Source: a virus
Strand: one strand, 5' to 3'
Virus record (IMG/VR): IMGVR_UViG_3300050120_000012
Location: 7,813-71,812 of that record
Length of the DNA stretch: 64,000 nucleotides
Below, one piece after another: positions 1 to 60,946 of this stretch (position 1 is the first letter of the stretch; every line of letters starts with the position of its first letter). The translations under genes were made by a program, and so were the position numbers. The notes beneath the pieces are model-generated. The model had not been told where the DNA came from. It searched no databases and was given only the letters and a program-made list of their open reading frames with translations.

Positions 1-335
1 ATAAGAAACCCAAGCTTGATTGGAGTTCCATCGTCATTGTCAGAATGTGATCCAGTAGCCACAGCTTGGAGACGCTTGGCCGATTCTATTCGAGCAGAGA
101 AGTTGAACTCAACCCATGTCACAGGAAAAGGGGGATCACCTAAACGAAGATAGCTCAACAGACGTTTGCTCAACGTACTGGAGCATGACACTTGCATAAT
201 GTAATCCACAATATCATCGTCCAAGGTGAACGGAATTGCCTTCTTCATTTGCTCGCGATAGAGCTTCATTCCCGCTTTGCCATGAGACTCAACTATAGCT
301 CGATTGTAGAGATCAAGATTGCGGGTGTTCTTCAT
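1..335 (-). CDS. hypothetical protein, truncated at the window edge (MKNTRNLDLYNRAIVESHGK...)
   Basis: Hand-translated open frame from ATG at 335, which overlaps the upstream stop as ATGA, to position 1 with no stop. Not in the ORF track. Confidence 0.7.
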   Translation of the reverse strand, partial: MKNTRNLDLYNRAIVESHGKAGMKLYREQMKKAIPFTLDDDIVDYIMQVSCSSTLSKRLLSYLRLGDPPFPVTWVEFNFSARIESAKRLQAVATGSHSDNDDGTPIKLGFL

Positions 336-559
336 AGTATGTCCCAATCATCATCATCTATGGGTTTATCGCCGGGGCGTCCAAGTTCACACCATAAAAG
401 GTAGGCGGCTTTGCGATCCCATGACGCATCACTGATCTTGCCGCCGTTGGCGAACACGGCTTCATCACCGACGTTGTTCAGAGACGTACCGAAGTGGCGT
501 TCGAAGTAAATCTCGAATGGCGTCACAGCGCCGTCCTTCGGTCGATCCTTTACAGCCAT
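332..559 (-). CDS. hypothetical protein ending in DDDDWDIL
   Basis: 75 aa ORF tightly packed between its neighbours; carries the shared C-terminal motif. Confidence 0.75.
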   Translation of the reverse strand: MAVKDRPKDGAVTPFEIYFERHFGTSLNNVGDEAVFANGGKISDASWDRKAAYLLWCELGRPGDKPIDDDDWDIL

Positions 560-822
560 GCCAGCCCATTCCTTGTGATGCTGTACCGTCCGAACGGATG
601 CTTGGCGATCCAGTAGCGTCCGTGGCAGACCATCATCCCGGACAGCGCACCTTGGACGGAGGATTCGGTGACGATGAAGTGTGTGCCGTCCGGCCTTAGC
701 ACATGGGACAACACCTTGGCGATGTCTTTGGCGTACAGCGGCCCTAGCTCCTGAATCCGCGCCGCGTGCAGCACCATGAGAACCTGACGCTGGAGCGGCC
801 CCGGCTTGCCTTGCTTCGCCAT
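550..822 (-). CDS. putative winged-helix DNA-binding protein
   Basis: From MAKQGKPG: LQRQVLMVL..AKDIAKVL..VTESSVQGALSGM..YSITRNG resembles a wHTH pattern. Confidence 0.5.
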   Translation of the reverse strand: MAKQGKPGPLQRQVLMVLHAARIQELGPLYAKDIAKVLSHVLRPDGTHFIVTESSVQGALSGMMVCHGRYWIAKHPFGRYSITRNGLAWL

Positions 823-872
823 GGATTGCTTGCGGTGGCGCTCGCCGTTCTTCGCTGGATCGCGACGACGGC

Positions 873-1022
873 TCACGATCCTATCCAGCACGGCGACGAG
901 ATGATCTCGATCAGGCCGAAGAACAGGCACAGCATACGCGCCGAAGCGTCCATGCGGGGATTGCGGGTGAAGACGCCCCATATGAACAGGACCATGAAGA
1001 AGATCGCGATGAACCACTTCAT
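873..1022 (-). CDS. small membrane protein
   Basis: Two hydrophobic stretches, MKWFIAIFFMVLFIWGV and MLCLFFGLIEII. Confidence 0.5.
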   Translation of the reverse strand: MKWFIAIFFMVLFIWGVFTRNPRMDASARMLCLFFGLIEIISSPCWIGS

Positions 1023-1085: not shown

Positions 1086-2144
1086 TTAGTACGAGAAGTC
1101 ATCATCGGATACCTCCTGAAGGGCTGTTTTGGCTTGTTCGATGCCGTGTTCGATCTGTTGACGTTGGACGCTTTGCAGACGGACACGTTCGGCATTCAAA
1201 GCCTCTACAGGATCGACCTTTTCAGTTGGTGGAGAAAGAAGGTCAATGCCGAGTAACTTTGCAGCCATGAAGATGCCTTGACGTTGGTAGTTTGACAGCA
1301 ACGTCTCATCGTCAATCATCTGACGGAACGCATCTTCGACGTGGCCTTTGTCGGCCTGCATCTCGCGAAGTTTCTTCTCACGCTCGACGCGCCGGGCTTC
1401 GTCTTCGACCACACGGCGAGCCTTGGCCGTCGTATGCAGTTCCATGTCCGCGCGGTCTTTGTTGATGATGTCCTGACGCAGCGGCACAAGTCCATCTGCG
1501 ATCATGGATGGAATTTGCATGAGCGCGTATTCCTTCGACGCAAACCGCTTGGCGTCGGACTTCGTTTCGCGCTTCTCGCCGCTGATCTCATAGCGCCGAA
1601 TGTAGTTCAGCGTGTCACCCATCCTCGGATCGGGCATGTCGCCCTTCTCATAGTCGCCGTAGCGAGCGGCGGACTCAAAGCCCCTGATCTCCCACGACTT
1701 GCCCCATCCGCTTTCGATGCAGACGAAGGCGACAATCCGATTGGGATCATCGGCGTCGGCCAAGACGCCCGTATCGATGACGGGATAGACGGACTTCCAT
1801 GTGTATTTGGAAATGCCGAATGGCTTGGAATCGTTGAGCGCGAACCGTTCGCCGAGGACATAGCCGATGGGTTCAGCCTTCAGCTTCTTCGCCAGATACT
1901 TCGATTGGCAAGCGCCACACACGTCATGCGCCCATTCGAACTTTGTGAACTGCGAATAGGAGCCGGTGTCGCAATAGACGCGCTCAATCCGGTCGCGGTT
2001 ATCGGTTTGGGAGTAGGCGACGGCGTATTTGTCGCCACAGAGAGATTTGACAGACCACCGCGCTTCACCTTCGCGTCCGGGTGACGCCGGTTCGATAGCT
2101 CCGATCAGATGCTTTTGGTGAGAAGACCGTTGTGAACGCGCCAT
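1086..2144 (-). CDS. hypothetical protein (352 aa, coiled-coil C-terminal half, acidic tail DDDFSY)
   Basis: Long ORF; AGGAG-type RBS upstream on the minus strand. Confidence 0.8.
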   Translation of the reverse strand: MARSQRSSHQKHLIGAIEPASPGREGEARWSVKSLCGDKYAVAYSQTDNRDRIERVYCDTGSYSQFTKFEWAHDVCGACQSKYLAKKLKAEPIGYVLGERFALNDSKPFGISKYTWKSVYPVIDTGVLADADDPNRIVAFVCIESGWGKSWEIRGFESAARYGDYEKGDMPDPRMGDTLNYIRRYEISGEKRETKSDAKRFASKEYALMQIPSMIADGLVPLRQDIINKDRADMELHTTAKARRVVEDEARRVEREKKLREMQADKGHVEDAFRQMIDDETLLSNYQRQGIFMAAKLLGIDLLSPPTEKVDPVEALNAERVRLQSVQRQQIEHGIEQAKTALQEVSDDDFSY

Positions 2145-5225: not shown

Positions 5226-5430
5226 CGTTCTTCAAGTCCTTTAGGTATTTGATGACATCGGACGCTTCACCGATGCCGAGATTGTCGAACCACGCTTGGA
5301 CGGTGGTGTATGCCATGTCGAAGTGTGGAAGGTCTTCATGGTCACGGTTTGTCGCGAACGTCGATATACCACAGTCGATCATAAGACCGCGAATGTAGGA
5401 CAGTTGCTTGTCCGTTGCCATGATCGCCAT
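5218..5430 (-). CDS. hypothetical protein
   Basis: ATDKQLSYI...EASDVI pattern typical of small phage proteins. Confidence 0.7.
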   Translation of the reverse strand: MAIMATDKQLSYIRGLMIDCGISTFATNRDHEDLPHFDMAYTTVQAWFDNLGIGEASDVIKYLKDLKNDG

Positions 5431-6179
5431 TAGAAACTGAACCCATCATCGTCGGTTGCTGGAGCATCTTCTTCGAAGCCGAAGTCTGGCTCTAGCTCTT
5501 CGACATCATCTGGACCGAAGTCAGCATCGTCTTCAGCTTCTCCGCCGCCTCGCGCTTCCCGGTGTGTCTTGAGGTAGGCTGACAGATCACCGACAGAAAG
5601 CTCGCGAACGTCGGCGGCGAAGTCTCCAGCGGCGTCGGACGCCACAGTGAAATCAACGGATCGTTCCGGCCAATCCACAAGTTGGGGCGGGAGCTTGCCT
5701 GTGTATGGGGATGCAGCCCACTTGCGCCCGTCCGCATTCGCCCGAATACGGTCTCGGACATAGCTTTTGACGGATTCATCAAGGGGGAACTCCAACTGAA
5801 AGACGCTCATGAAGTTGATGACTGTATGCTCGGATGGAGCTTCGCGCAACTGGTGAGATCGTGCGGACGCAGCTTCGATCCATTCGATGGGCCAGATGTC
5901 CATGACCTGCCATAGCGGAAAGAAGTTGAAGGACTGCGCAGCAAGTTTGTCCACAACGTACATGCCAAGCTCAGTGATCGTGACGGACCCGTCATCGTCC
6001 ACGCCTTCGATGATCCCGGCCCATATCAGTTTGTAGGCATGGTTCAGATAGATCGGCGCAACTTGGCCGACATCACCGATGGAGTTCTCCAGCCATGAAC
6101 GCATAAACATGATCGACCGGCGATCCATGTACGCGGGATCATAAAGCATTGGCATCCAATCTCTCCATTGTATTTTCAC
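5430..6179 (-). CDS. hypothetical protein, possible wHTH, long acidic tail (EPDFG...DDDGFSF)
   Basis: Long ORF; probable GTG start overlapping the upstream stop; start uncertain. Confidence 0.7.
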   Translation of the reverse strand: MKIQWRDWMPMLYDPAYMDRRSIMFMRSWLENSIGDVGQVAPIYLNHAYKLIWAGIIEGVDDDGSVTITELGMYVVDKLAAQSFNFFPLWQVMDIWPIEWIEAASARSHQLREAPSEHTVINFMSVFQLEFPLDESVKSYVRDRIRANADGRKWAASPYTGKLPPQLVDWPERSVDFTVASDAAGDFAADVRELSVGDLSAYLKTHREARGGGEAEDDADFGPDDVEELEPDFGFEEDAPATDDDGFSF

Positions 6180-6484
6180 GACACACCGTTGTCGTATATC
6201 CACGTTGTGTTATCGCCGTCGATCCTGCCTAGCGCGAACGCAAACCAATCTTCGACGAAATCGTCACCGACTTCATATCGCTCGACGACGCAGACCATAT
6301 AGTTCGTCTTTTGCTCAGTCGAATCTTCGATCAGCATAGCAGTACCGATCTGTGTCACGACTGAGTTCAACTCATCTATGGTCATCTCTTCTGGAAATGA
6401 CACATAGAGTTCCTGTAGCAGTTCACCGTAATTCTCAAGCGACGGCGGGCTATCGAACATTGTGCTGATCGATAGCCTATTCAT
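6176..6484 (-). CDS. hypothetical acidic protein
   Basis: ORF from MNRLSIST overlapping the upstream gene. Confidence 0.6.
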   Translation of the reverse strand: MNRLSISTMFDSPPSLENYGELLQELYVSFPEEMTIDELNSVVTQIGTAMLIEDSTEQKTNYMVCVVERYEVGDDFVEDWFAFALGRIDGDNTTWIYDNGVS

Positions 6485-6743: not shown

Positions 6744-7201
6744 AGCGTTACCCTTGGCTGAAACAGCTTTGGCATCTTCAGCCGGTCAAACCGGCCAAGT
6801 TCATCAAACATGATGGTCGGACGAACGTACAGCCGTGGATGGTGGGGCCAGATATGCACATACAGCGTCATATCCTCTTCCGTCTCTGTATGGAAGACGT
6901 TTGATGATAGACGCAGATAGATACCACCCTTCTTATGACGGAAGAGAAAGCCCTTTTGCGGACGGATGACCGGCGGTGGCATGTAGTCGGTGAAGCCTCC
7001 GAAGTCCCACTCCAGACACAGATACCGCACGGCGCGGTACTCTTCATCGGTTGCGTGCTTCTCCGGTGGATTGAACCACTCCCAACGATTCGTCAGGACG
7101 TACCCGGCCTTCTGTAGAAACTGGATAGCGTTCTGATCCGCACAGTTGGTCGGACCTAGATTGGTGAAGAACTCATGCTCTTCTGGCGGACCACTAGGCA
7201 T
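6740..7201 (-). CDS. DUF1653-like domain protein
   Basis: C-terminal LFRHKKGGIY...HTETEE...Y...YVRP..MF matches DUF1653. Confidence 0.65.
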   Translation of the reverse strand: MPSGPPEEHEFFTNLGPTNCADQNAIQFLQKAGYVLTNRWEWFNPPEKHATDEEYRAVRYLCLEWDFGGFTDYMPPPVIRPQKGFLFRHKKGGIYLRLSSNVFHTETEEDMTLYVHIWPHHPRLYVRPTIMFDELGRFDRLKMPKLFQPRVTL

Positions 7202-7535
7202 CGATCAGTTCCTTGTCCACCTTGAGACGTCTTCGCTCCCGTGACTTCAACGCCTTCTTTATGATCTTGAACCCGGCCTTCATGACAGTGACGGCCTTGT
7301 CCAGACGTTTCAGGTCTTTCTCGGTCCATCGGTCATCGTTCTCAACGGACTCGATTAGGCATTCGAGTTCATGGACTTCATGGCGCAGATTGCCATAGTT
7401 GATCCACGCCATCTGATCCTTGATCGGCGGAAACTTCGTCGGACCTGTGTCCGGGAAGATTTCGCCTTGCGGACGCTCTTTGGAGCCCGGCTTTGGCCGT
7501 GGTGGCTCATAGTATCCGCCGCCCCATCCACCCAT
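7194..7535 (-). CDS. hypothetical protein
   Basis: ORF from MGGWGGG, TAATG coupling. Confidence 0.65.
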   Translation of the reverse strand: MGGWGGGYYEPPRPKPGSKERPQGEIFPDTGPTKFPPIKDQMAWINYGNLRHEVHELECLIESVENDDRWTEKDLKRLDKAVTVMKAGFKIIKKALKSRERRRLKVDKELIDA

Positions 7536-7816
7536 TACGTTTGCCTCCAGAATGGACATGCGCCGCGTTTGCCGAAGCATTGCGCACACGTCTTGCCGCC
7601 GTACACGCCACTATGGCGCTCGACATCAACTTTGCATAGCTCGCGACGGTGGACGCCGATGTCCACACCACGCTTCTGATCCAGCGTGTATTGATCGAAC
7701 GCAGCGCGCTTATGCTTGTCTTTGTTCGCCGCCGCATGTTGACCGGGCAACGGCTGGAAATCCGGGATGCTATAGCTGAAACCGGCGTACACATAGACTA
7801 GGTTATTCGCCATCAC
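7535..7816 (-). CDS. hypothetical protein with Cys-rich C-terminus
   Basis: GGAGG RBS; CAQC..C. Confidence 0.65.
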   Translation of the reverse strand: MMANNLVYVYAGFSYSIPDFQPLPGQHAAANKDKHKRAAFDQYTLDQKRGVDIGVHRRELCKVDVERHSGVYGGKTCAQCFGKRGACPFWRQT

Positions 7817-7958
7817 ATGCCTCCATAAGCCATTGCTCGCACTTGTTCACGCGAGCTTCACGTTCCTCTTGGGATTGCTTGGGCGGCCACTTGCGGCTTT
7901 CGTCGATCATCGCGACCATGAGTTGGCGGACTAGACGGGCTTGACGTTTGGTCATCAT
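7803..7958 (-). CDS. small hypothetical protein (51 aa, MMTKRQARLV...)
   Basis: Hand-translated; ATGA coupling to the upstream gene; fills the gap. Confidence 0.55.
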   Translation of the reverse strand: MMTKRQARLVRQLMVAMIDESRKWPPKQSQEEREARVNKCEQWLMEACDGE

Positions 7959-8173
7959 TGTTCTTTGAACCTGTCTTCTTCCGGGATTTGATCCAGAATG
8001 GATTGTAGCCGCTTCTCTGTCTTTCTGAGATCACGGACGCAGTTCTGCCAATCGCCTCTGACCCATATCCTACCTTCGCCGCGTTCAATCATGTCCGCGA
8101 TGGTTTTGATGGTGCGGACATCGCGCGATCCGAGGACGATGCAAACCGTTGCGTTGGTCTTCTCATTGCTCAT
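7955..8173 (-). CDS. hypothetical protein
   Basis: ORF from MSNEKT with GAGG upstream. Confidence 0.65.
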   Translation of the reverse strand: MSNEKTNATVCIVLGSRDVRTIKTIADMIERGEGRIWVRGDWQNCVRDLRKTEKRLQSILDQIPEEDRFKEQ

Positions 8174-10187: not shown

Positions 10188-10449
10188 CGGTGATCGGCTC
10201 CACTCGCGGCTCATCGGTTTGGGGCCAGCACGTTGTATGGGGAATCTCCGAAATGTCCATCTTGGTTTTCCAGTGTGAACCACAGACTCGGCACATGAGG
10301 TAGGACATTGCAGACCATCGTGGCTGATAACCATTGAACGCCGATCTGGATTCATGGTCGATCAGTACCACCCATTGCCTCGGGCGCTGATTTGATCCAG
10401 CCGGTACGATCTGTGGCCGGTTTCGTTCCGTGCAGCGACAGGCGCTCAT
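10180..10449 (-). CDS. hypothetical Zn-ribbon protein
   Basis: MSACRC...SAFNGY...S...CRVCGSHWKTK; ATGA coupling. Confidence 0.75.
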   Translation of the reverse strand: MSACRCTERNRPQIVPAGSNQRPRQWVVLIDHESRSAFNGYQPRWSAMSYLMCRVCGSHWKTKMDISEIPHTTCWPQTDEPRVEPITDV

Positions 10450-11087
10450 ATGATGTCCCAATCCAAAGAAGGATCGTCGAAGTCCGGTTCGGGTTCTTCA
10501 GTCTTACGGATCGGATCGCCGAACCCGTCTGTCTCGCCGGTCCACATAGACTCGACGGTCTTACGGAAGAGTTCGATGCGGTCTTTGTCAGGCTGGCGTA
10601 GTTCCGCTCGCGCTTGGATTGATCCGGGGGGTGGTAAAGAGGGGGTGCGCTCTAACCACTCCACGACAGTTTCAGTGTCGAGCGCGAGATCGACGATGCC
10701 GGTACGCGGACGTATGGTGAGGAAGTCTAAATCCTTCAGTGGCTTCATCCACCATCGCTCAGTCTTAGCGGGCATGGTCAAAAGACCGACGATGATCTCT
10801 TCGCCTAAACCGTCCAAGAAACGATCTGGACTGAACTCGCCGGTCGATTTGATGAGTGAATGACGCAAGGCTGCACCGACGACAGTCAGGCTATACATGC
10901 CATCTAGCTCGCGCCGCATGAGGCCATTCTTGACGCATAATTGTAGGGCTCGGGAGCGATTGACTGTGACAGCCGACTCCGATTTGCGCCCGCCTGACTT
11001 GGGCCGGTACATGGGGGATGAACCCATCTCATCCACAAGCTCAGCAAAGCCGGGATAGATTCTATGGGGCAGAGATCGGGGTTCCAT
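10446..11087 (-). CDS. hypothetical protein, possible wHTH, ending EPDFDDPSLDWDII
   Basis: First gene of the leftward operon; LQLCVKNGLM..DGMYSLTVVG looks like a wing. Confidence 0.75.
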   Translation of the reverse strand: MEPRSLPHRIYPGFAELVDEMGSSPMYRPKSGGRKSESAVTVNRSRALQLCVKNGLMRRELDGMYSLTVVGAALRHSLIKSTGEFSPDRFLDGLGEEIIVGLLTMPAKTERWWMKPLKDLDFLTIRPRTGIVDLALDTETVVEWLERTPSLPPPGSIQARAELRQPDKDRIELFRKTVESMWTGETDGFGDPIRKTEEPEPDFDDPSLDWDII

Positions 11088-46068: not shown

Positions 46069-46069
46069 A

Positions 46070-47578: not shown

Positions 47579-49755
47579 TACTTACGATACCGGAGCATGG
47601 CTGCGCCTTCGGCGGCGATGGGGAAGCCTCTGCCCCAATTCGGAAGGTGACACATGAGATCGCATAGAAGCTGCGCAGCGGCTTTGCTTCCACCTAATGC
47701 TTCGACGCGGACGATCTCCAGCGCCGTGACTAGCTCATCGTGGACGGTAAGTAGAAGCTCGAATTGACCATGACGCTTTACGACCCGCATAGCGTGCGCC
47801 ATAAGATCGCGACACAAAGCCTGTACGATGTTCTCGACTAGCTTTCCCCCGTAGGTGTAGCTCCGATCCCACTTCTTCGTGAAGCTGTTGATCTCCATGT
47901 ACGAGATCGCCAGCTTCCTCGACTTCGTGTATGTGACCTTGCCTGTCACTTCGTCCACGTCTTCCCATACGCGCTCCGTCCATTCCAGCTTGGGATAGGG
48001 ATAGGGGATCAGCCTGCCCGAAGGCAACTGGCAAAACAGGAAGCGCCCGGCGCGCTTATAGGCAATGTGCGAATTGACGCGGACTACCGATCCGGGGTTC
48101 TGCATCGCCTCGATAGCTGCGCCCTCACAGGCGTACCAAAAGGCTTTGACCGGCGCATGACGCTCACGATAGCCAAGGATGCCTTTCTTGGCCGTGTCTA
48201 GGTCAATGATGATCTTCGATTGAGCGCAGTAGTCAATGAACTTCGGAGGGCCTAGCTGATACCCTGCGCCCAAGATGATTTGCTTGCCGAACTGGCGTTC
48301 ATCGGCCCAACGGATAGACGGGGCTTTGTTCTTCTTATCTTCATCGAACTCGCGTTTGATCGTCGCGTAGTCGAGATTGTTTACGAAGGCCGCCATCTCC
48401 AGATAGGAGTCGATGCCCTGATTGAATAGCTCTACGCCGTCGTGGTGATCGCAGACCCAAAACAGACCGCGTGCTTCCACGGATGAATAGTCGGCGGTGA
48501 CAAGCATCTTATCTTTGCCGGGCAGGATCGCACCACGCAACGCGCCAGAGAAGACGCTGTAGAGATCGTCATACTCTTCTTCTAGTTCCTCTGCGTCCAA
48601 GTTCATAAGAGCAAAGACGGTATCGTCCATGTTCTTAATCTTGCCACGCGGAAGGTTCTGCGGCTGGATGCCTACTCCCGCCCACCGGGACGTGCGAGAT
48701 GCACCGGCATACATGAGAACGTCTCTACACCGCCCGTCGTCAGACGCACGGTATCGAATGGTCTTATATTTTGCTGTTGATGCGCGACCAGCCATACGCA
48801 CACGACTAACAACGCCGTGTATATGGTCTGGAAGGAAATCATCTTCCAAGAGCGCGTCGAGAGTAGCAGCCTGCGTATTGGGAAGTTCAAAGCCATTTTC
48901 TAGCATCCATTCTTTGAGTTGATTTCGCGCTGTGACTTTCGGGACTTTCCCGTCAGTTAGACGCTGTATCTCTTCTTCATACTTCCCCCGAAGGTATGCC
49001 AAGGTCTCCATTGCCTTATCGACAAGTTCAAGGTCGATAGGGATGCCGCGTTCGTTGATCTCCTGATCGATCAGCCAAATCTCTTGCTCGACCGGCGATA
49101 GATCAGGGAGGGATTGACTGAACCGCTCTTCAGCGAGAACGTCCTTCCGGCAATAGACGATCAGACGCTTGATAGATGTCGCGTCTTGAACCCATCGCTC
49201 GGGTTGCTTCTTCGTCGCCTTCTTCGGACGACACATGGTCATCATGAGCTTGTGACCTTCCTTGTCCTTCTGGACAGGGAGGTTCATGATCTCACAGCAC
49301 TTCTCCAGACCACGCGGGAGACTGTACGATGCAGCCTTGGCCGCCGAACATCTCCATTGCACGTCTGGAATGTCGGGCCAGAACTCAGGGACTAGCTTGC
49401 TGCGCCAGACGGCGCGTTCGAACATGGCATTGTGGGCTTCAACGACTCCGCCATCTTCGATCCACTTGCATAGATCGGCTGGCGGCGGCATCCGTGGGAC
49501 GCCACAGATGTCCGCGATCCAATCGGGAACCCACACCGCTGTCTTGCCCTCGGGCCAGAAGGGCAGGCGGTAGCAGAGGCACATGACCTGTGTGGAGTCG
49601 TCCGACGCATAGCGCCAAGCGCCGGACTTCTTTAGATCGATCCGCGACCTTGTTTCGAAGTCGATAGTGGCGCGTTGAAGACGTGTTTTTGCTGGAGGCT
49701 TCGGCTTGCGAACCTCTACTCCGGGACCGCCAATGGTTCCGAGATCAAAAGCCAT
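47578..49755 (-). CDS. DNA polymerase family A with 3'-5' exonuclease
   Basis: IDFETRS and AHNA.FE (exonuclease); ADYSSVEAR (motif A), RQ.GK...LG.GY (motif B), VHDE (motif C). Confidence 0.95.
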   Translation of the reverse strand: MAFDLGTIGGPGVEVRKPKPPAKTRLQRATIDFETRSRIDLKKSGAWRYASDDSTQVMCLCYRLPFWPEGKTAVWVPDWIADICGVPRMPPPADLCKWIEDGGVVEAHNAMFERAVWRSKLVPEFWPDIPDVQWRCSAAKAASYSLPRGLEKCCEIMNLPVQKDKEGHKLMMTMCRPKKATKKQPERWVQDATSIKRLIVYCRKDVLAEERFSQSLPDLSPVEQEIWLIDQEINERGIPIDLELVDKAMETLAYLRGKYEEEIQRLTDGKVPKVTARNQLKEWMLENGFELPNTQAATLDALLEDDFLPDHIHGVVSRVRMAGRASTAKYKTIRYRASDDGRCRDVLMYAGASRTSRWAGVGIQPQNLPRGKIKNMDDTVFALMNLDAEELEEEYDDLYSVFSGALRGAILPGKDKMLVTADYSSVEARGLFWVCDHHDGVELFNQGIDSYLEMAAFVNNLDYATIKREFDEDKKNKAPSIRWADERQFGKQIILGAGYQLGPPKFIDYCAQSKIIIDLDTAKKGILGYRERHAPVKAFWYACEGAAIEAMQNPGSVVRVNSHIAYKRAGRFLFCQLPSGRLIPYPYPKLEWTERVWEDVDEVTGKVTYTKSRKLAISYMEINSFTKKWDRSYTYGGKLVENIVQALCRDLMAHAMRVVKRHGQFELLLTVHDELVTALEIVRVEALGGSKAAAQLLCDLMCHLPNWGRGFPIAAEGAAMLRYRK

Positions 49756-50108
49756 TACTTATCAGACGGAGCGATCATCTCAAGCGCGGCTTCATAGAGT
49801 TCGATCAGCGCCTCTTCTTCCTGACGCTTGGCCTTGTCTTGCTTCCGGCGCGCGATGACCTTGCGCATGATCTTCACGTCAAAGCCTTCACCCTTGGCTT
49901 CAAGGAAGACTTCCTTCTTATCGGTCTTCACCGCATCTTCGTCTTCCTGAAGACGCTCGATACGCTCGACGAAGGACTTCATCCGCGTCTGCGCCGTGGT
50001 GGACATCATATCCAGCGCCACGCCTACTTCATCGCCGTTGAATGACTCTAGGCCATTGCCGAAGTCAATGTCGCCGTCTTCGGCTTCCAAATCGAAATCA
50101 CCGGCCAT
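49755..50108 (-). CDS. gapR: GapR-like nucleoid-associated protein (DUF2312) with acidic N-terminal extension
   Basis: SFVERIERL.E......D.KEVF.EAKGEGFDVKIMRKV...RKQD...RQEEEA...LY matches GapR/DUF2312. Confidence 0.88.
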   Translation of the reverse strand: MAGDFDLEAEDGDIDFGNGLESFNGDEVGVALDMMSTTAQTRMKSFVERIERLQEDEDAVKTDKKEVFLEAKGEGFDVKIMRKVIARRKQDKAKRQEEEALIELYEAALEMIAPSDK

Positions 50109-50109
50109 G

Positions 50110-50679
50110 TTAGTACGCCTCACCTTGATTGGGATCGGTGATGTCGAGATAATCTCTCCAATACACCCACTTCCATTGCATCGTCGGATTGTTGACCCGG
50201 CTTACGATGACTTCGCCGGTATCGTCTTGATAGTTCGCGGGTGGACACCAAAAGCCCCAATCCCGCTCGCGCTCGCCACGGAAGATCAGGGTGAGGACCG
50301 TCCGGGTATGCAGCCGCGTGATCCTGTGAGCGTGCTGTGGCCGCCTCGCACGGTAGCTGAGCCACCGGAGGGTGTCAGGGATCAGGAGGCCGCTAGGCGG
50401 GTTCTCCAGCCCATTGTTCGTCTGCGCCACAAGCGACTCCTGCGGCTCATGGGACACTTCATCGTACCCACCGTAAAGGATCAGCGTGCGAAAGCTCCAC
50501 GGATGATCGTGGAAGACGCGATCAGCGTCCGGTCGATAGAATTTGTGGAGATAGATGCGGAGCTTGAAAGGCCACCACTTCCACGGCGTCAGGTGCGTCC
50601 GTACAAGATAGGGTTGGCCGTTTGTGTCGATCCATTCGACGTACATGCCAAGCGGTAATTGCTTAGTACGGATACCCAT
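50110..50679 (-). CDS. cupin-like hypothetical protein
   Basis: YL.R...IYLH...D....HDHPW.F..LIL.GGY.E...HRI...WGF pattern. Confidence 0.75.
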   Translation of the reverse strand: MGIRTKQLPLGMYVEWIDTNGQPYLVRTHLTPWKWWPFKLRIYLHKFYRPDADRVFHDHPWSFRTLILYGGYDEVSHEPQESLVAQTNNGLENPPSGLLIPDTLRWLSYRARRPQHAHRITRLHTRTVLTLIFRGERERDWGFWCPPANYQDDTGEVIVSRVNNPTMQWKWVYWRDYLDITDPNQGEAY

Positions 50680-50738: not shown

Positions 50739-51380
50739 CTAGAACTGAACGTCGTCATCTCCGAAGGCGTCACCGCCCGCGTCGTCGCCGAAGCTGATCT
50801 CGTCTTCGCCCAAGTCGGTGAAGTCGTTCTCCGCGTCCGGCCCTTGATTGCCGAACTTCTCGCCGTCACCGATGAAGATGAGGTTGTGCAGATTGACCGC
50901 AACGCCCTTGGACTTATTGTCGAAGCTCCAGAACGACACGGAAGCTCGGGCGTAGCAGCCCGCGTAGAACTTGCTCCAGTCGATCTTGGTCTTCGCGCCG
51001 CCGATCATCTGGATCATGCCGGGCGGGGTTTTGTTCCCCATCCGAATGAACGTGACGCCTGCGCCGTAGCCGTCTTTGTCCGGCTTCTCCATGCCGTCGC
51101 GGAACGGCATCTTGTACGCCGGAAGAATCTTCCGGTCGGCCCCGAACGCTTTGTCGCCGAACTTCTCCCGGAGGGAGGCCACGGCGGCTTGACGCATCTT
51201 CTTCCACCGCTCCGCATCTTGCGGTGTGAAAGACGTAGCCGTGAAGAGGCCGGTCACGCCATACTTGGGATCGCTGGCGGAACCTTCCATCTTGGACGGC
51301 TTATCGAGGTTGGGATAGGACGTTCGGAAGATCGGAGTGGTGATCGTGACCTGAACGGCTTTCTCGGCTGCATCAGCCAT
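50739..51380 (-). CDS. single-stranded DNA-binding protein (DUF2815-like)
   Basis: R.SYP.L..P, PFRDG, FYAGCY.RAS and GV...L.N.....DGE.FG motifs; acidic tail DDDVQF; start at MADAAEK. Confidence 0.88.
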   Translation of the reverse strand: MADAAEKAVQVTITTPIFRTSYPNLDKPSKMEGSASDPKYGVTGLFTATSFTPQDAERWKKMRQAAVASLREKFGDKAFGADRKILPAYKMPFRDGMEKPDKDGYGAGVTFIRMGNKTPPGMIQMIGGAKTKIDWSKFYAGCYARASVSFWSFDNKSKGVAVNLHNLIFIGDGEKFGNQGPDAENDFTDLGEDEISFGDDAGGDAFGDDDVQF

Positions 51381-51450
51381 GAGGGTAGTCCTTTCTAACG
51401 TGTTAGCGTTTGAGCGTTTTAATGGCCCCATGAGGGAGCCGGGATCGACG

Positions 51451-51802
51451 CTACCGGACTCTGCGCACGTTGGCAATAGCGCGTTCGATATTGGTGAGAT
51501 TCGGAATGCGCTTGCGTTGGAAGACTTCACGCCAGAACGGAGGGACTTTTGTGTGGTCTCCAGAAGAACGGGCATAGATCAGTTGGGTAGCGGTCTGGCG
51601 CACGATTACTGCATCCATTCCAGCGATGTCGCAGATGTCCCTATACTCGTCTTGGGCTTCTATGAACCAAGCGCGAGCTTCATTTACACAACGGCGATGT
51701 TCTTCTTTGTCGTGCGGTAAGTTGGTGAAGCCGAGGGCATCGCAGAGCGCCCGGTATATGACTTGCTGACAAACCGGACGCCACTCTTCAACGATGTCCA
51801 TG
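51451..51802 (-). CDS. hypothetical protein
   Basis: W..V..Q....DA...EARAWF...Y..ICDIAGMD conserved phage pattern. Confidence 0.7.
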
Positions 51803-51830
51803 GTTAACGGACATAGCAGGGAGTTCGGGG

Positions 51831-53414
51831 TTAGAGAATATCCCATTCGTCGGCGTCGGGTGCGGCGAGTAGCAGCGGTTCCCCGTCGTCCACGACACTG
51901 AAGTCCGCGTCGATAATGCCAAGCTCTTCGTCGCCCAAGTCACTGAACGGATTGATCTCGATTGCAGGACGCGCGTCGGTGATCGGAACTAGGGTGAGCT
52001 TACCTTCCGGGTGGAAGGACAGTTGGGCCACAAGGTCTTTACCGATCTCGGGTATCTTCTCCAGTTGAGCCGGTGTCTTGCACTTCGGCTCTTTGAAGAT
52101 GTCCTTATCTGGAATACCCATGTTGCGCAGACGCTTGATCGTGTCCGCTTCATTCTTCAGCTTTCGATTAGACCGCTTGCGGACGATCTTCTGGCCTTCG
52201 ATGGCATAGCCGTTTTCAGCCTCATGCTGAGCGTAGGCTTGAACGTCGCGGATCATGGCGTCCAGCACAGGTGCGAGACGGAGGATGGTGAGCATCCGCT
52301 GGCGATCTCCGATGACGCTGGCGACCATCTTCTTCGATAGGTTCTCACCGGCTTCTGATAGCACTTGCTTGACACCTTTCTGAATGACGAACTCTTCGTC
52401 GCCTAAGTCTGTGAAGTCCTGCAAAGCAAGCGACTGAGCTTGGTCGAATAAGGCGGGACAAGGCTTCGCCTTACCATTGCAGAAGAAGCATTGGACTTCG
52501 CCGGGGACTAGCGGCGCATCCGGGTCTTCGGTCGCTATTGCAGCTTCAATGAGAGTCTTCGTGAAATCCATGACTTCATCGATAGTGTAGTCCCACGTTC
52601 TAATAGGACCGTCTCTGTGAGCCGCGCGAGGTTGAACGATAACGGTACGGACGATCTTCGGTAAGTCCCCTCGATCTCTACATATTTCGAGGATAGCCCC
52701 AAGAGCATAATACAGAAGTTGAGGATTGAATTTAGCTTCGACGACTTTACCTCTTCCGTGCTTGTAATCAAGAACGATAAGGATTTCGCCTCTGACGAAG
52801 AAGCAATAGTCATTTGTTCCGAACATGCCGGGATAGAGGCGACTGAGATCAAATCCCTTTTCAAGGAAAATATGAACGTCGTCTTTGTCATAAGTAGCAT
52901 ACAGTTCCTCCGTAATGCGGGCGATCTCTAGTGTGTATTTCGCCACGGCATCGGCCATGTCTTCATCGATCTCAAAGACGATCACGTCGTCTTCTTCCTC
53001 ATCCGGGTAGTCGTCGGTGAGGTTGCCTTTGATGTCGATAAACTGTCCGATGAACCAATGCGGATGAACGTCGGACGACAGTGCAAGCTCCGCTAGATGG
53101 TGAGCACACGTTCCCTCTTGAGCAAACCGGCTGGATCGGTTCGGCATCCCCTTGGACATGCGGACGGAGCCGGGACACTTCATCCATCGATCTGAGGACG
53201 ACGCACCTAATACGGCGTGGACCTTGCCATCCTCTGACGTGTGGCCTTCCTTCTTCCCATGGGCTTGAGGCCCTAGCACGGATAGCAGCGTCGGAACCCG
53301 ATTTTCCAGCCCCATCTCCGCAACGATGTCGTCGAAGTTTATATGGGGATTGGCGATCAGAGTTGTGACCTTGGCGATCACCTTCTCTTTGTTCTTCGCT
53401 GCGAAGTCGATCAT
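51831..53414 (-). CDS. Cas4-like exonuclease (DUF2800-like) ending DEWDIL
   Basis: HA.L.AS...RW..CPGS, EGT.AH, FGT.D, DYK.GRG, NPQL..YALG and C.FC...C motifs. Confidence 0.88.
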   Translation of the reverse strand: MIDFAAKNKEKVIAKVTTLIANPHINFDDIVAEMGLENRVPTLLSVLGPQAHGKKEGHTSEDGKVHAVLGASSSDRWMKCPGSVRMSKGMPNRSSRFAQEGTCAHHLAELALSSDVHPHWFIGQFIDIKGNLTDDYPDEEEDDVIVFEIDEDMADAVAKYTLEIARITEELYATYDKDDVHIFLEKGFDLSRLYPGMFGTNDYCFFVRGEILIVLDYKHGRGKVVEAKFNPQLLYYALGAILEICRDRGDLPKIVRTVIVQPRAAHRDGPIRTWDYTIDEVMDFTKTLIEAAIATEDPDAPLVPGEVQCFFCNGKAKPCPALFDQAQSLALQDFTDLGDEEFVIQKGVKQVLSEAGENLSKKMVASVIGDRQRMLTILRLAPVLDAMIRDVQAYAQHEAENGYAIEGQKIVRKRSNRKLKNEADTIKRLRNMGIPDKDIFKEPKCKTPAQLEKIPEIGKDLVAQLSFHPEGKLTLVPITDARPAIEINPFSDLGDEELGIIDADFSVVDDGEPLLLAAPDADEWDIL

Positions 53415-55761: not shown

Positions 55762-56244
55762 CTAGGCGCTGAAGTCGGCGTCACCTTCCTTGGCGGCGGC
55801 AGGCGCGGCGGCCTTGTCGCCAGTGGCGGCTTCGCCTTCCTTGGCCGGGGCGTCGTTCTCGGTCGGGATCATGATGACCAGCGCCTTGTCCTCGGGATAG
55901 ACCTTGAACTTGGCCTTGGCCGACACGTCGAAGGGCAGGGACGCCGACATGACGTGCGCCGCCGTCTTCTTGCCCTTGCTGACGTAGCGCAGGGTGAGCG
56001 GGCCGTCGTCCGCCGGTTGGATCATGAGCTTGCCGCCCCACACCGCGCCGGTCCCCTTGACCGCCTTGACCTTGATGCCGTCGCCGAGATCGGTGAGGCC
56101 CATGGTTTCCAGCACGTCGGAACCGATGGTGATGACCTTCTGGCCCTTCTTCAGGCTGGAGACGCGGACGCCGGTGGTCTTGCGGCCCGTCAGGTTGACG
56201 CCGCGTTGGGGGACGATTGCTTCGCCCGAAAAGTTGAGAGCCAT
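55762..56244 (-). CDS. hypothetical protein (Lys-rich, strong codon bias)
   Basis: AAAGGA RBS; followed by a terminator. Confidence 0.8.
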   Translation of the reverse strand: MALNFSGEAIVPQRGVNLTGRKTTGVRVSSLKKGQKVITIGSDVLETMGLTDLGDGIKVKAVKGTGAVWGGKLMIQPADDGPLTLRYVSKGKKTAAHVMSASLPFDVSAKAKFKVYPEDKALVIMIPTENDAPAKEGEAATGDKAAAPAAAKEGDADFSA

Positions 56245-56943: not shown

Positions 56944-59457
56944 ATGTCAATTTCGGGTCCAACATCTCTGCTACCCAAGCCAAGCCAGCTTACCGCATAT
57001 GGTCAGGCGAATTGGCAGTATGTACGACTCCACCATTGGTCTGAGACGAAGACCCTTCCGCCCAACGCCAAGGGTGAAGTGAAGGTGATGAAATTGGGGA
57101 AGGCCCCCATCGGGAAGAAGTGGACGCTCAACGGCGTCGATCTCGAAAAAGCCGTGGCGCACGCAAACATGGGGAAGAATGTCGGCGCGCTCATCCCCAA
57201 AGGATGGGCCGTTCTCGACATCGATCCACGCAACTTTCCGAAGGGGCGCAAGGTATGGAATGAGTTCTGTACCGCGATGGGGATTGACGAAACTGAATTG
57301 CCGTTGGTGGTCACAGGTTCGAAGGGCCGTCACTACTTCGTTAGAATCCCGGAAGACTTCAAAGGTTCCGTAGGGCATCCCGACTATCCGGGTGTCGAGT
57401 TCAAGCAAAATGGCGCGCAAGTCGTCACAGCCGGGTCCATCCATCCCGATACACAGGGCTACTATATGTGGGCGGAAGGCCGTCCCGCTATGGAAGACGC
57501 GCCGATGGCCCCGGACACGGTTCTGGAGCTATTCAAGATCAAAGCGCCAACGCTCGGCGGCGCACGCGGATCAGGATCATGGAACTCCCTGACGCTGGAG
57601 CAAATCGACGAAGCTCTTGCGGCGCTAGACGCGACCAAGTTTCGCGATCAGGACGAATGGTTCGGACTCATGTGTTCCGTACACTGGCTATCCGGTGGCG
57701 AGGGACGCGAGAACTGGATTGAGTGGTCCACCAGCGATCCCTCATATGAGGACCACCGCGAAATTATTGAGATGCGGTGGGACTCCCTTGGCCGCGATAA
57801 CGATTCGAACGCCTTGGTCGCGAAAGGCGGTTTGCTGTTCAAAGCCCTCAAAGCGGAGGGCATCTCGCCGGGTGATGCGAAGTGGAAGCTGGACCCGGAT
57901 AAGGACTTCGAAGACTATGACGAAGCTGAAGCTGAGACGGATGCAGCGAACCTCAAGCTAGTCCATGAAGCGATCACCGATAAAATCCAGAAGACCGCTG
58001 GATCACTATTGGAGGCGATGAACAATCGTCACTTCGTTCTATGGCATAAAGCGAAGGTTGTCATCGGGTCCATCGTCAAGGAAGAAGATGACAATGGTGC
58101 AGAGATCACCGTTTACAATTTCACAGACAAGACTTCCTTTGGGACCTTCTATGCCAATAAAACCATCAAAGGTCCAGACGGCCCACTACCCGTCTCGGAT
58201 TGGTGGCTGCACCATCCGGGGCGGCTTACCTATAATGGCATGGAGTTCCGACCTGACAGGACGCCCGGTGCTTACATTAACCCTCAGAATGAGAAGATTC
58301 TGAACCAATGGACCGGATGGGCGCTGAAGCCAAAGAAGGGTGATTGGTCACTCTTCAAAGACCTGATCGACAAGACGATCTGCGGAGAAGACCCGGCCAA
58401 GATAGAATATATCTATAAGTGGTTCGCCAAAGCCTATCAGAAGCCGGATGGCCCAATCGGTACGGCGATGGCGATCAATGGTCTGAAGGGTACAGGTAAG
58501 ACCACCGTATGGGAAGTCTTCAGCGCACCGTTTGGATCGTCGCACGCCATGGCGACATCACGGATGAGCGAAGTCTTCGGGGACTTCAACGGTCGGATGA
58601 TGGGTAAGATGGCCCTCTTGATCGAAGAAGCCCTCTTTGCCGCGTCCAAGACATCGAACGCCATTCTGAAGGACACCATCACAGGCGGCAAGGTGTCCAT
58701 CAATGAGAAGTTCCTACCCGCATACTCACAGAAGAATTTCCTCCGCATCCTGATCTTCACGAACAACGATCATATCGTGGAAGCGACGGAAGATGAACGC
58801 CGGTTCTTCGTTACCCGCGCGCTAACCAATCGGAAGTACGATCCGGGTTTCTGGAAAGCCCTTCGTAAGCAAATGTTTGAAGAAGATGGAGTTGCGGCCT
58901 TCTTCCACGATATGCTAGAGATGGACATCACAGGCTTTGATGCCTTTCACGATATGCCGCGAACGAAGGAATTGCTGGAGCAAATCAACATCACGCGGGG
59001 CGCGACCCTCGATTGGCTTGCCGAGAAGTTTGACTCTGGCGAAGACCAATTCGGGTACGCATGGAAAAATGCCAAGCAAGAGTTCATCCTGCCAATCCAT
59101 GAAATGTGGATGGACTTCGCCATGTGGCAGAAGAACCAATCTCACGCCCGGTACGACAATCCAATCAAGTCACAGTCAGGGTTCAGCCGCGAGCTAAAGC
59201 GCGTCTTCGATGAACTGGCGCTCACCACCGCCAGCGTCCCGGCCGAGTTCGCAGCATTCGAGATCAAGTCTCACGAACAGGTGGTCAATAACAAGACCTA
59301 CCAAATCGCCAAGGTTTATAGGTTTCACAGCTACGCAGAGTTTGAAGGTACATTCCGCAAGCGGTATGGACTAGAGATGCCGGATTACGATCCATCACAT
59401 GACGAAGCGGACGATGAGCCTGACTTCGGCACAGAAGACGAATGGGACATCATATGA
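56944..59457 (+). CDS. primase-helicase (bifunctional Prim-Pol, PriCT-2, DUF5906-like NTPase) ending EPDFGTEDEWDII
   Basis: GKAP, NVG..LDIDPRN, TGS.GRHY, GSIHP, EWS...Y...W.S, GTGKTT and N....I.TN..DERRF motifs. Confidence 0.92.
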   Translation: MSISGPTSLLPKPSQLTAYGQANWQYVRLHHWSETKTLPPNAKGEVKVMKLGKAPIGKKWTLNGVDLEKAVAHANMGKNVGALIPKGWAVLDIDPRNFPKGRKVWNEFCTAMGIDETELPLVVTGSKGRHYFVRIPEDFKGSVGHPDYPGVEFKQNGAQVVTAGSIHPDTQGYYMWAEGRPAMEDAPMAPDTVLELFKIKAPTLGGARGSGSWNSLTLEQIDEALAALDATKFRDQDEWFGLMCSVHWLSGGEGRENWIEWSTSDPSYEDHREIIEMRWDSLGRDNDSNALVAKGGLLFKALKAEGISPGDAKWKLDPDKDFEDYDEAEAETDAANLKLVHEAITDKIQKTAGSLLEAMNNRHFVLWHKAKVVIGSIVKEEDDNGAEITVYNFTDKTSFGTFYANKTIKGPDGPLPVSDWWLHHPGRLTYNGMEFRPDRTPGAYINPQNEKILNQWTGWALKPKKGDWSLFKDLIDKTICGEDPAKIEYIYKWFAKAYQKPDGPIGTAMAINGLKGTGKTTVWEVFSAPFGSSHAMATSRMSEVFGDFNGRMMGKMALLIEEALFAASKTSNAILKDTITGGKVSINEKFLPAYSQKNFLRILIFTNNDHIVEATEDERRFFVTRALTNRKYDPGFWKALRKQMFEEDGVAAFFHDMLEMDITGFDAFHDMPRTKELLEQINITRGATLDWLAEKFDSGEDQFGYAWKNAKQEFILPIHEMWMDFAMWQKNQSHARYDNPIKSQSGFSRELKRVFDELALTTASVPAEFAAFEIKSHEQVVNNKTYQIAKVYRFHSYAEFEGTFRKRYGLEMPDYDPSHDEADDEPDFGTEDEWDII

Positions 59458-60314
59458 GTATCAAGGCCGTCGTTATCGAAGACTCCATCTCTGCCATTGA
59501 TGGCAAGCGTCTAACCACCCTCCAGCTTCGATACCCTCGGTTCATCCATGCGGAGTTCATGACGCACCGCATCTTCAGTCGCAATGCGTCGTCGAGCCGC
59601 GCCATCCCGGTAAGCCGTCTGATCCAAGACATCATTGACGATCCTGCGGAGCCGGTGAAGTGGGGAACCAATCGTCCGGGGATGCAAGCCGGGGAAGAGA
59701 TGCGCGGGCTGGAGCTTGCGTCTGCTAAGGCGTACTGGCGTGAAGACCGGGAACACAGCATCCTCATGGCGCGAGCCTTGGACGGCTGTGGAGCGTCAAA
59801 GCAACTCGTCAACCGTCTGATCGAAAACCACGGACATATCAACGTCGTCTGCACCGCAACGGAGTTTGCCAACTGGTTTGCTCTGCGGAACCATTGGATG
59901 GCTGATCCGACTATCGAAGCTCTGGCGATAGCTATGTGGAATGCGATGGAGGATTCGAAGCCGGTGGAGCTTGGGCGGCGCGATTGGCATACACCCTACG
60001 TCAACGCGGCCAAGGAAGATTTGGACCGGCGCGAGGCGATCCTATGCTCCGTCGCCCGATGCGCCCGCGTGAGCTATTTGACGCACGATTTGGTGAAGCC
60101 CAAGGTCGAAAACGACTTGCGCCTAGCACACGATCTAGTAGGTTCGACGCCGAAACACGCAAGCCCTGCGGAACACCAAGCCCGGCCTCTAGCTGAAGGC
60201 GAGGGTGAGAAGCGGTTTGTGGATGGCGCTGATCTCCCGACCGGCAACTGGATAAAGAACTTCAACGGCTGGCGCATGTACCGCGCCGACATAGCAGATG
60301 AGACGGTTTGGTGA
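59454..60314 (+). CDS. thyX: flavin-dependent thymidylate synthase
   Basis: PRFIHAEFMTHR.FSRNASSSRAIP, F.LR, S.ARCARVSY and HASP.EH motifs. Confidence 0.9.
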   Translation: MSIKAVVIEDSISAIDGKRLTTLQLRYPRFIHAEFMTHRIFSRNASSSRAIPVSRLIQDIIDDPAEPVKWGTNRPGMQAGEEMRGLELASAKAYWREDREHSILMARALDGCGASKQLVNRLIENHGHINVVCTATEFANWFALRNHWMADPTIEALAIAMWNAMEDSKPVELGRRDWHTPYVNAAKEDLDRREAILCSVARCARVSYLTHDLVKPKVENDLRLAHDLVGSTPKHASPAEHQARPLAEGEGEKRFVDGADLPTGNWIKNFNGWRMYRADIADETVW

Positions 60315-60946
60315 CTTACGGGGTATCCGCTACTGGAGGCAACCCCGAAGCGGGACGGCGTGAGGCGGACTTCTACTCGACGCCCGAAGACGCCACCGAA
60401 GCGGCATCATATGGCATACCCGGTCTGGATAAAATGACCGGCGTTTGGGAGTGTGCGTGCGGCGATGGACGACTTGCGAAAGTTCTGGAGAAGCGTCGGC
60501 CCGGTTGGAAGATGGCTGCTACCGATCTCTTTGATCGCTCTTATGGTGTGGGAGGGGTGGACTTCCTGACGGCTGAGTGGCCCGACGATCTGGATAAAGA
60601 CTCGACGGTCATCTTCACCAATCCACCCTTCAGTCTATCCGAACAGTTCATCCGCCGCGCGTTGTCCCATGACGTTGCGATGGTGGTCATGTTCAGCAAG
60701 TCCACATACTATCATGCCGATGTTCGACGCAGCTTCTTCGAAGAGATGGCTCCCCAATACAAATACGATCTTACCTTTCGTGTGGACTTCTCCGGCCAAG
60801 GAAGACCAACGATGGAATGCTCTTGGCTGGTATGGGTTCGTGACGCAGACGATCCGAACATATGCCAGCTTCGACTACTGCCACGTTCGCCGCTTATGCC
60901 TTCGCGTAAGCTCGCCTTAACCGATGAAGATTGGGACATATTATGA
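60311..60946 (+). CDS. DNA amino-methyltransferase (N6A/N4C type) ending DEDWDIL
   Basis: DFYSTP, WECACGDG (SAM binding), DFL and TNPPF catalytic motif. Confidence 0.85.
   Translation: MTYGVSATGGNPEAGRREADFYSTPEDATEAASYGIPGLDKMTGVWECACGDGRLAKVLEKRRPGWKMAATDLFDRSYGVGGVDFLTAEWPDDLDKDSTVIFTNPPFSLSEQFIRRALSHDVAMVVMFSKSTYYHADVRRSFFEEMAPQYKYDLTFRVDFSGQGRPTMECSWLVWVRDADDPNICQLRLLPRSPLMPSRKLALTDEDWDIL

Follow-up and report, generated by a model that had tools for sequence, protein, structure and literature searches.

A C-terminal tag shared by unrelated proteins of a 71,812-bp phage genome, a possible docking motif of a T7-like replisome

Introduction

Phage T7 is the textbook case of a replisome organised by two acidic tails: the C-terminal tails of its SSB, the protein that binds single-stranded DNA, and of its helicase are alike and interchangeable. 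In T4 and RB69, the C-termini of gp43, gp33 and gp55 bind gp45, and in bacteria the C-terminal tip of SSB is DDDIPF. Here, we describe a short peptide, [DE]-[WF]-D-I-[LI] directly before the stop codon (the tag), that is shared by unrelated proteins of a phage whose genome is a single contig of 71,812 bp (IMG/VR record IMGVR_UViG_3300050120_000012). The window is the stretch of 64,000 nucleotides from base 7813 to base 71812 of this genome; coordinates are window positions unless they are given as genome positions.

Several papers, cited here from excerpts, describe how such tails work. The tail of T7 gp4 binds two basic patches of gp5 (PMC12593628), and the tail of gp2.5 interacts with other replication proteins (PMC10359462). 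Crystals of Enc34 ORF6, of two DUF2815 proteins and of gp2.5 show the tail inserted in a beta-sheet groove that belongs to a neighbouring molecule (PMC5686142). Clamp-binding peptides follow the motif Q-aliphatic-x-[LM]-[FL] or Q-aliphatic-x-[LM]-x-[FL] (PMC11139829).

Our phage resembles T7 in that it has a replisome of the same type, that different replisome proteins carry flexible, acidic C-terminal tails whose tip is hydrophobic or aromatic, and that the tails of one phage resemble each other. It differs from T7 in the number of carriers, which is five to eight here and in its relatives compared with two, and which includes proteins from outside the replisome (small terminase, methyltransferase, the first early protein and orphans). 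The tip also differs, being four residues, [WF]-D-I-[LI], rather than a terminal Phe; the SSB tail (DDDVQF) is of another kind, and the primase-helicase is PrimPol/D5-like.

Clamp-binding peptides, both bacterial and those of T4 and RB69, offer a second parallel: many clients, among them polymerases, nucleases and methyltransferases, present one short, often C-terminal hydrophobic peptide to one pocket of a hub. The tips described here, however, vary far more between clades, and Pfam and PHROG find no clamp gene in the phage. With the bacterial SSB tip the tag shares an acidic run, a hydrophobic tip at a free C-terminus and contacts to the replisome, but there one hub tail serves many partners, whereas here many proteins are tailed, and the sequence differs. 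Finally, the LC3-interacting regions and Atg8-interacting motifs of autophagy cargo in eukaryotes ([WFY]-x-x-[LIV] after acidic residues) have the same acidic-W-x-x-L grammar and bind by two-pocket beta-strand addition. This is a resemblance only; their receptor is the Atg8 family, of which, to our knowledge, neither bacteria nor phages are known to have a member.

Results

Gene calls and starts in this study are our own longest-open-reading-frame (ORF) calls, 91 in the whole genome. Five of these ORFs end in the tag:

332-559, minus strand: p75, 75 residues; ends DDDDWDIL; tag codons 335-346; the ATGA overlap is the start of the next gene
10446-11087, minus strand: p213, which opens the leftward operon; C-terminus EPEPDFDDPSLDWDII; tag codons 10449-10460
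51831-53414, minus strand: DUF2800 (PD-(D/E)XK-type) exonuclease; ends ADFSVV...DADEWDIL; tag codons 51834-51845
56944-59457, plus strand: PrimPol/PriCT_2/DUF5906 primase-helicase; two-part tail ending in DDEPDFGTEDEWDII; tag codons 59443-59454
60311-60946, plus strand: small N6-adenine-type DNA methyltransferase-like protein; ends LTDEDWDIL; tag codons 60932-60943

The C-termini are those from which the original prediction started (DDDDWDIL, PSLDWDII, DADEWDIL, TEDEWDII and DEDWDIL), and the DNA beneath them is also as it described. Four copies read TGG GAC ATM HTA TGA, each with an ATGA that opens the downstream frame, and the exonuclease copy reads TGG GAT ATT CTC TAA without an overlapping start.

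The shared tag is real, and chance does not account for its copies, which are far more numerous than in shuffled controls and all stand at C-termini. A six-frame translation of the window contains WDI[LIVM] at five sites, each with a stop directly after it; in the whole genome there are six copies of WDI[LI], every one immediately 5' of a stop, the sixth lying just outside the window. Dinucleotide-preserving shuffles of the genome (n = 200) yield a mean of 0.31 copies and a maximum of 3, none before a stop, and amino-acid frequencies predict 0.0008 WDI[LI] tails among the 91 called ORFs, in which no internal copy occurs. At positions -4 to -2 a tripeptide is common to five proteins, and never to more than three when the last 20 residues of each protein are shuffled (2000 times). 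To call the tag phage-wide, as had been done, is nevertheless too strong, with 5 of 91 called ORFs carrying it here and 8 of 119 annotated proteins in the related Brevundimonas phage vB_BsubS-Delta (Delta). Spread of the tail by DNA duplication was rejected, the DNA of the tails being dissimilar beyond the last five to six codons.

Carriers were identified by Pfam and PHROG scans, which covered 84 ORFs of the genome; an NCBIfam search of eight proteins gave no match. The labels exonuclease, primase-helicase and methyltransferase, which had been assigned from the letters alone, are confirmed by these scans, by alignment motifs and by structure comparison. The exonuclease matches PF10926 (DUF2800, E 2.5e-71) and phrog_69 ('exonuclease', E 9e-91), the primase-helicase has Prim-Pol, PriCT_2 and DUF5906 domains in Pfam and matches phrog_1156, and the methyltransferase matches phrog_799 ('DNA methyltransferase', E 2e-38) and belongs to a family with WEPACGDG and TNPPF motifs in an alignment of 98 sequences. 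A PDB sequence search with the methyltransferase gave no match; Foldseek, run with its AlphaFold2 (AF2) model, returned the N6-adenine DNA methyltransferases M.TaqI, M.BseCI, CamA and HsdM. The predicted local distance difference test (pLDDT) score of this model is 91.1 overall but drops to 64 and then 46 in the two final 10-residue blocks (residues 201-211). The model thus suggests that the fold stops near residue 190 and that the tail lies outside it and is flexible.

All annotated carriers are DNA-binding proteins, and four of the five tails are acidic. The primase tail, which ends WDII, consists to 48% of D or E across the 25 residues preceding the tip. For p75, neither Pfam, PHROG nor NCBIfam gave a match, and an Atlas search gave no usable family. 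The tail of p213 holds both a DF motif and the tag, with EPDFD standing before the latter; p213 is likewise without a family match in Pfam, PHROG and NCBIfam, and an Atlas search returned weak structural leads, among which there are faint hints of a winged helix, and no usable family.

The sixth copy of the tag is out of frame. It follows this gene:

Genome 7047-8159, minus strand: ORF of 366/370 residues, its 5' part at window 1-347; in-frame end VKPPKKDD

The copy itself (DDWDIL, genome 7022-7036, minus strand) lies in the +1 frame, 10 codons beyond the in-frame stop, and a skip of one base after AAG AAA would yield KK-TIDRDDWDIL. The site is identical, at a depth of about 40, in a Logan contig of the one public run that contains this genome, labelled a peat metagenome; the run is, however, the probable source of the assembly and hence not independent, and contigs conceal minor variants. 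The orthologue in an 87.6-kb relative, G001, does not carry the tag. A homologue search with the 370-residue ORF returned only the ORF itself. Either the sixth copy is a recently lost tail, or a +1 frameshift gives tagged and untagged forms.

How the tag behaves in evolution can be seen in close relatives. The nearest phages in GenBank are Delta and four other Brevundimonas phages, with a primase 48% identical to ours; Delta was examined for all five, the other four having the same primase score and being judged near-duplicates. The group also includes G001 (an IMG/VR genome, also locus L023) and L047, a contig of 8.7 kb, and these two were the only finds of a metagenome scan. Single-sequence scans of viral contigs with the primase and the exonuclease found no relatives, and neither did an alignment-based scan of genome contigs. 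In Delta, eight proteins have [WF][DA]IL tails (small terminase, DELTA_47, exonuclease, primase, DELTA_73, DELTA_79, DELTA_118 and DELTA_119) and two more have near-variants (DDEFDI and DPFDL); G001 has seven [WF][DA]IL tails. The set of carriers partly differs in Delta and G001, where it includes the small terminase.

In both relatives the exonuclease ends DAFDIL, the small terminase DGFDIL and the first leftward gene DDEFDIL, and the p75 homologue of G001 ends DDPFAIL. Between our phage and these relatives proteins are 40-50% identical, and the G+C content is 55.6% in our phage versus 62-64% in Delta-like phages. Of 13 primase orthologues, whose last 278 residues are 46-100% identical, 11 end W-D-[ILF]-[ILA]. 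Over the last six positions D is found in 10 of the 13, E in 8 ([DE] in 11), W in 11, D in 11, I in 9, and I or L in 12. From position -7 back to -30 no residue is present in more than 8 of the 13 sequences, and the commonest is mostly in 2 to 6, so that conservation is restricted to the last six. The methyltransferase tells a different story: of the 150 best representatives of its family three have tag-like ends, namely the two closest homologues (72% and 45% identity; KDEWDIL and KEDWDIV) and one that ends GVFDFL. That the tag sits on unrelated proteins, the core of the original prediction, is borne out in these genomes, and the tag is portable, kept on orthologues and gained or lost on individual families.

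Beyond this group a pattern scan of viral contigs for [DE][DE]WDI[LF]-stop returned 28 loci, about the chance estimate for a pattern of about 31 bits (made without a control run). L023, which is G001, is the only related one among them; L016, L027 and L005 hold single tails. In seven IMG/VR contigs (L008, L009, L010, L013, L018, L026 and L030), two of which bear giant-virus (GVMAG) names and which are unrelated to our phage, a protein of 123-129 residues that has a repeat region rich in Pro and Ile ends KK[DE]D[DE]WDIL. Acidic-W-x-x-L would, in a virus that infects eukaryotes, match the grammar of Atg8/LC3-interacting motifs.

Is it the peptide or the DNA that is conserved? Our codon comparison covered 22 tails from four genomes (this phage, Delta, G001 and L047), 16 of them from the three relatives. 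The peptide stays while codons, stops and overlaps vary. The Ile codons ATC, ATT and ATA occur 12, 7 and 3 times, the final codon is of six kinds, and the stops TGA, TAA and TAG occur 11, 5 and 6 times. The aromatic position is W or F, and 9 of the 22 tails use TTC or TTT, which removes the GGGA. Codon variation together with retention on orthologues therefore shows that selection acts on the peptide and not on the DNA; the original prediction had drawn this conclusion from the synonymous codons of the exonuclease copy, and the change from W to F in relatives agrees with it.

One could also argue that the conserved element is the DNA, TGGGACATNNTATGA, which would be a ribosome-binding or restart cassette for the next gene with the peptide as its by-product. 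ATGA overlaps are found at 15 of the 91 genes in our genome, at four of the five tagged ones versus 11 of the 86 others (hypergeometric P of about 0.002). In the tagged genes GGGA sits 6 nt upstream of the overlapping ATG, and sequences like GGGA, AGGA or GGAG stand before other starts too, including that of the major capsid gene. However, the exonuclease copy and the out-of-frame copy are without an overlap, the 4 of 22 tails that have one are all from this genome (0 of 16 in Delta, G001 and L047), and 11 of 13 primase orthologues have kept the peptide. TGGGAYAT occurs nine times on both strands, six times as a tag and in none of the other three cases as a start cassette. The GGGA-N6-ATG coupling that had been proposed holds for this genome, where overlaps are enriched on tagged genes, and fails in the relatives. 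Because the relatives keep the peptide without the ATGA overlap, translational coupling is a local by-product and not the cause of conservation. As a primary cause the cassette is largely refuted, and we leave it next to no probability.

The wider module to which primase and exonuclease belong shows further tails. We gathered 53 loci of distant relatives from viral contigs with an alignment of three primases. Many of these loci have a clade-specific tip that is common to primase, exonuclease and often SSB, and the same tip often stands on one or two additional small proteins per locus. Examples are:

L065: NWDE and EWDE on primase and exonuclease
L096: GLDI, ELDI and QLDF
L089-L097: [AE]LGL(E) on primase and exonuclease, D(D)ILG on the SSB
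L100: LEGL and DLDI groups

Phages of 37-44 kb with the same module (L100/G005, L089/G006, L096/G007 and L088/G008) have their own tips on three to six proteins, small proteins of unknown function included; these tips are CLEGL and DLDI, LGL, LDI, and DLL[ST].

For a permutation test, the last five residues were scored with BLOSUM62 and partners were shuffled between loci 20,000 times. Primase and exonuclease have a mean score of 5.42 within loci versus 2.11 when shuffled, and no shuffle reaches the observed value (n = 24). The observed value is reached by 22 of 20,000 shuffles without the WDIL lineage (n = 23) and by 70 if the LGL clade is also collapsed (n = 19). For primase and SSB tails (19-20 loci) it is reached by 14 of 20,000 shuffles, and by 25 without the WDIL lineage. 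In the same test the C-terminus of the polymerase has no within-phage likeness to the tails of primase and exonuclease. Judged by these comparisons, the tails of primase, exonuclease and SSB are more alike within a phage than between phages.

The exonuclease family also has an older element. Of 28 distinct exonuclease tails, 23 show DF within their last 32 residues where 0.14 would be expected, mostly in the form D-F-x-x-[LIVM], and DF[GDS] stands 7-22 residues before the end in 12 of 13 primase tails. The D-F-x-x-aliphatic element spans clades whose proteins are 25-35% identical. The Delta-type tip A-F-D-I-L is this older D-F-x-x-[LIVM] exonuclease element at the extreme end.

Three further genes of our phage belong in this comparison:

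47578-49755, minus strand: family A DNA polymerase; phrog_17 (E 4e-89), PF00476 just below the cut-off; ends RYRK, no tail
50739-51380, minus strand: gp2.5/Enc34-type SSB; PF10991 (E 9e-30), phrog_112; own acidic tail GDDDVQF
14225-15010, plus strand: small terminase subunit; phrog_4044; ends DDDDEPDFGV

The analogy to T7 gp4 and gp2.5 in the original prediction fits this gene content: the replisome is made up of a family A polymerase, a gp2.5-type SSB and a primase-helicase, which is not a gp4 homologue. Pfam and PHROG add SNF2-, Dda- and UvrD-like helicases to the module. Among the matches of the 84 ORFs there is no member of a sliding clamp family, although remote homologues among orphan ORFs are still possible. 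A conserved protein of 352 residues (1086-2144), considered as a hidden clamp-like hub, was rejected, since in an alignment with the G001 homologue its C-terminal half is charged and coiled and repeats of a domain are absent.

The polymerase is the conserved member of the module that is never tailed, and its last residues are RYRK at most loci of relatives where the gene is present. As a single sequence it has no match in a PDB sequence search; as a profile it matches Klenow/Taq-type chains, and T7 gp5 is absent among the 60 matches listed. Its close homologues P0003, P0018 and P0019 are 966-1029 residues long and align to 51-65% of the query, and may carry an insertion such as an intein. Adjoining the polymerase gene is one for a GapR-like DNA-binding protein (49755-50123, minus strand; PF10073, E 2e-27). 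GapR is an alphaproteobacterial nucleoid protein, and the gene fits the kinship with Brevundimonas phages.

The longest ORF of the SSB (50739-51575, minus strand) has 278 residues. The ATG at 51380, which gives 213 residues, has an AAGGA upstream of it and coincides with the position where the Delta orthologue begins, and from the sequence it is the more likely start; it also ends the overlap with a conserved ORF of 131 residues (51451-51846). In Delta and G001 the SSB ends ADEFQL, similar to their tag DEFDIL, whereas here DDDVQF and DEWDII are unlike. The end of the small terminase and the primase tail have a DEPDFG element in common.

A second family of acidic tails, D-F-[SNG]-[FYAV]-stop, is found on 4 of the 91 ORFs (0.01 expected) as DDDFSY, DADFNF, DADFSA and, on the small terminase, EPDFGV; DDGFSF and the DDDVQF of the SSB are close variants. 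The genes of this family and its variants are:

1086-2144, minus strand
5430-6203, minus strand
14225-15010, plus strand (small terminase)
21516-22028, plus strand
55762-56244, minus strand
50739-51380, minus strand (SSB)

These tails may be a second docking motif, kin to the D-F element that occurs near the end of exonuclease and primase.

Discussion

Our results suggest, with a probability that we would put slightly above even, that the tag is a docking motif read by a common phage-encoded partner in the replisome. [DE]-[WF]-D-I-[LI] would be a short linear motif at the free end of a flexible and usually acidic tail. The aromatic and the last aliphatic residue would plug a hydrophobic pocket of one receptor, while the acidic run and the free carboxylate would add charge. 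Docking would tether the carriers to the phage replisome. Among these are the primase-helicase, the DUF2800 exonuclease, the DNA methyltransferase, the first early protein, several small orphans and, in relatives, the small terminase. The tag would then be this lineage's version of the older acidic-Phe-x-x-aliphatic element in the exonuclease tails of the wider module, and the partner would co-evolve with the tail that it reads. That the motif binds anything, and that there is a single receptor, is what we infer from these patterns.

Since the D-F-x-x-aliphatic element spans clades with only 25-35% identity, the receptor is probably encoded by the phage and conserved within the replication module. 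The leading candidates, by inference, are the polymerase and the SSB. Our first choice would be the tail-less family A polymerase, following the docking of T7 gp4 and gp2.5 on gp5, and our second the gp2.5-like SSB. The polymerase as the docking partner is a tentative proposal that rests on this analogy, and we would rather bet against it than for it.

It is also conceivable that the tag docks on a host protein such as the beta sliding clamp, the host SSB or RNA polymerase, which it would recruit or hijack, with tagged orphans as inhibitors. The first early genes are tagged, and exonuclease, methyltransferase and primase are typical clamp clients. An x-aromatic-D-aliphatic-aliphatic peptide at a free C-terminus is loosely like QLDLF, and the tip is near-invariant between our phage and Delta-like phages despite the gap in G+C content and the divergence of the proteins, which would suit a conserved host pocket. 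However, a clamp pocket is too conserved to explain why the tips of one module differ between clades (WDIL, LGL, LDI, WDE). Clamp-type docking, one of the precedents named in the original prediction, fits poorly, since the tag departs from the clamp-binding motif at positions 1, 2 and 4: it lacks the Gln, whose change to Glu strongly weakens QLDLF, its second residue is aromatic and its fourth is Ile (PMC11139829, as excerpted). When 185,579 species genomes were searched for D-E-W-D-I-[LF]-stop, there were 62 hits, of which 8 end frames of at least 60 codons in scattered taxa, and no host family emerged. We consider a host receptor improbable. It is somewhat less probable again that there is no common receptor and that each tail folds onto the DNA-binding surface of its own protein as an acidic DNA mimic, for autoinhibition or specificity for single-stranded DNA as in gp2.5, gp32 and Enc34 ORF6, with the tip as a generic anchor. 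The DNA-binding carriers and the acidity of four of five tails would agree with this. The tail of gp2.5 competes with single-stranded DNA for the same surface, according to a reference title in PMC10359462, and in an excerpt of PMC5686142 removal of the tail of Enc34 ORF6 alters DNA specificity. Yet unrelated folds are not expected to select the same four end residues, which are kept at 46-70% identity as the acidic run varies, the tails of different proteins co-vary within a phage, and methyltransferase homologues are basic before the tip.

As a further alternative, the original prediction offered a degron. In this view a protease or adaptor would recognise the tag as a C-terminal signal for degradation or timing and remove the carriers together at a set stage of infection. 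A free C-terminal peptide on the products of early and middle genes, of which only the free end is conserved, would suit such a signal. It is ill-suited to these carriers because primase and exonuclease, and in other clades the SSB, are required throughout replication. Acidic residues beside the C-terminus are unfavourable for ClpX-type recognition, and clade-specific tips are unlike what a conserved host protease would select. Among the Pfam and PHROG matches of the phage's ORFs there is no gene for a protease or adaptor. The degron is without support and, in our view, very improbable.

Several observations weigh against a common docking partner in the replisome. The identity of the receptor is a guess, and several carriers are not obvious parts of a replisome, namely the methyltransferase, the orphans, the small terminase and the first early protein. 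The SSB tail of our phage, DDDVQF, is unlike the tag, whereas the two tails of T7 are alike. Two of the 13 primase orthologues (P0127 and P0129) end [LI]GFGI in place of WDI[LI], and in two methyltransferase homologues basic rather than acidic residues precede the tail. The co-variation test uses our own score and ORF calls on related loci that are not fully independent, and several loci score near zero, so that shared tails are not universal in the module; Pseudomonas phage PaMx74, which has the same module, has no shared tail among the 45 annotated non-structural and terminase coding sequences that were compared. In addition, the enrichment of ATGA on tagged genes means that a DNA-level constraint has been added in this genome.

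If the tag does dock on the replisome, one could imagine a clamp-less system of address tags, in which one pocket of the polymerase or the SSB is the hub for six to nine clients. Methylation would be coupled to replication through the methyltransferase, and packaging through the small terminase. The first early, winged-helix-like protein would be a client too, and tiny orphans that are little more than a tag would be competitors or timers. The +1 frameshift would be a switch at the sixth copy, and the clade tips LGL, LDI and WDE would be parallel dialects. This extended scenario is speculative, and we think it rather unlikely as a whole. If true, a virus would have, on a T7-like replisome, the functional equivalent of the PIP-box/PCNA network.

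In a full-text literature search, with subscription journals outside its coverage, we found T7, T4, SSB and clamp precedents only, and neither clade-specific tips common to primase, exonuclease and SSB nor a tag that reaches terminase, methyltransferase and orphans. Should the docking reading be correct, the hub would be findable by peptide pull-down in the cultivable Brevundimonas phage Delta, and a small peptide should poison phage replication. The tag would also predict where orphan phage proteins act, and annotation pipelines could treat shared C-terminal tips as evidence for interaction. For the biology of these phages it would mean that the tail principle of T7 is general and expandable, and that a label of four residues wires a methyltransferase, the small terminase and early regulators to replication.

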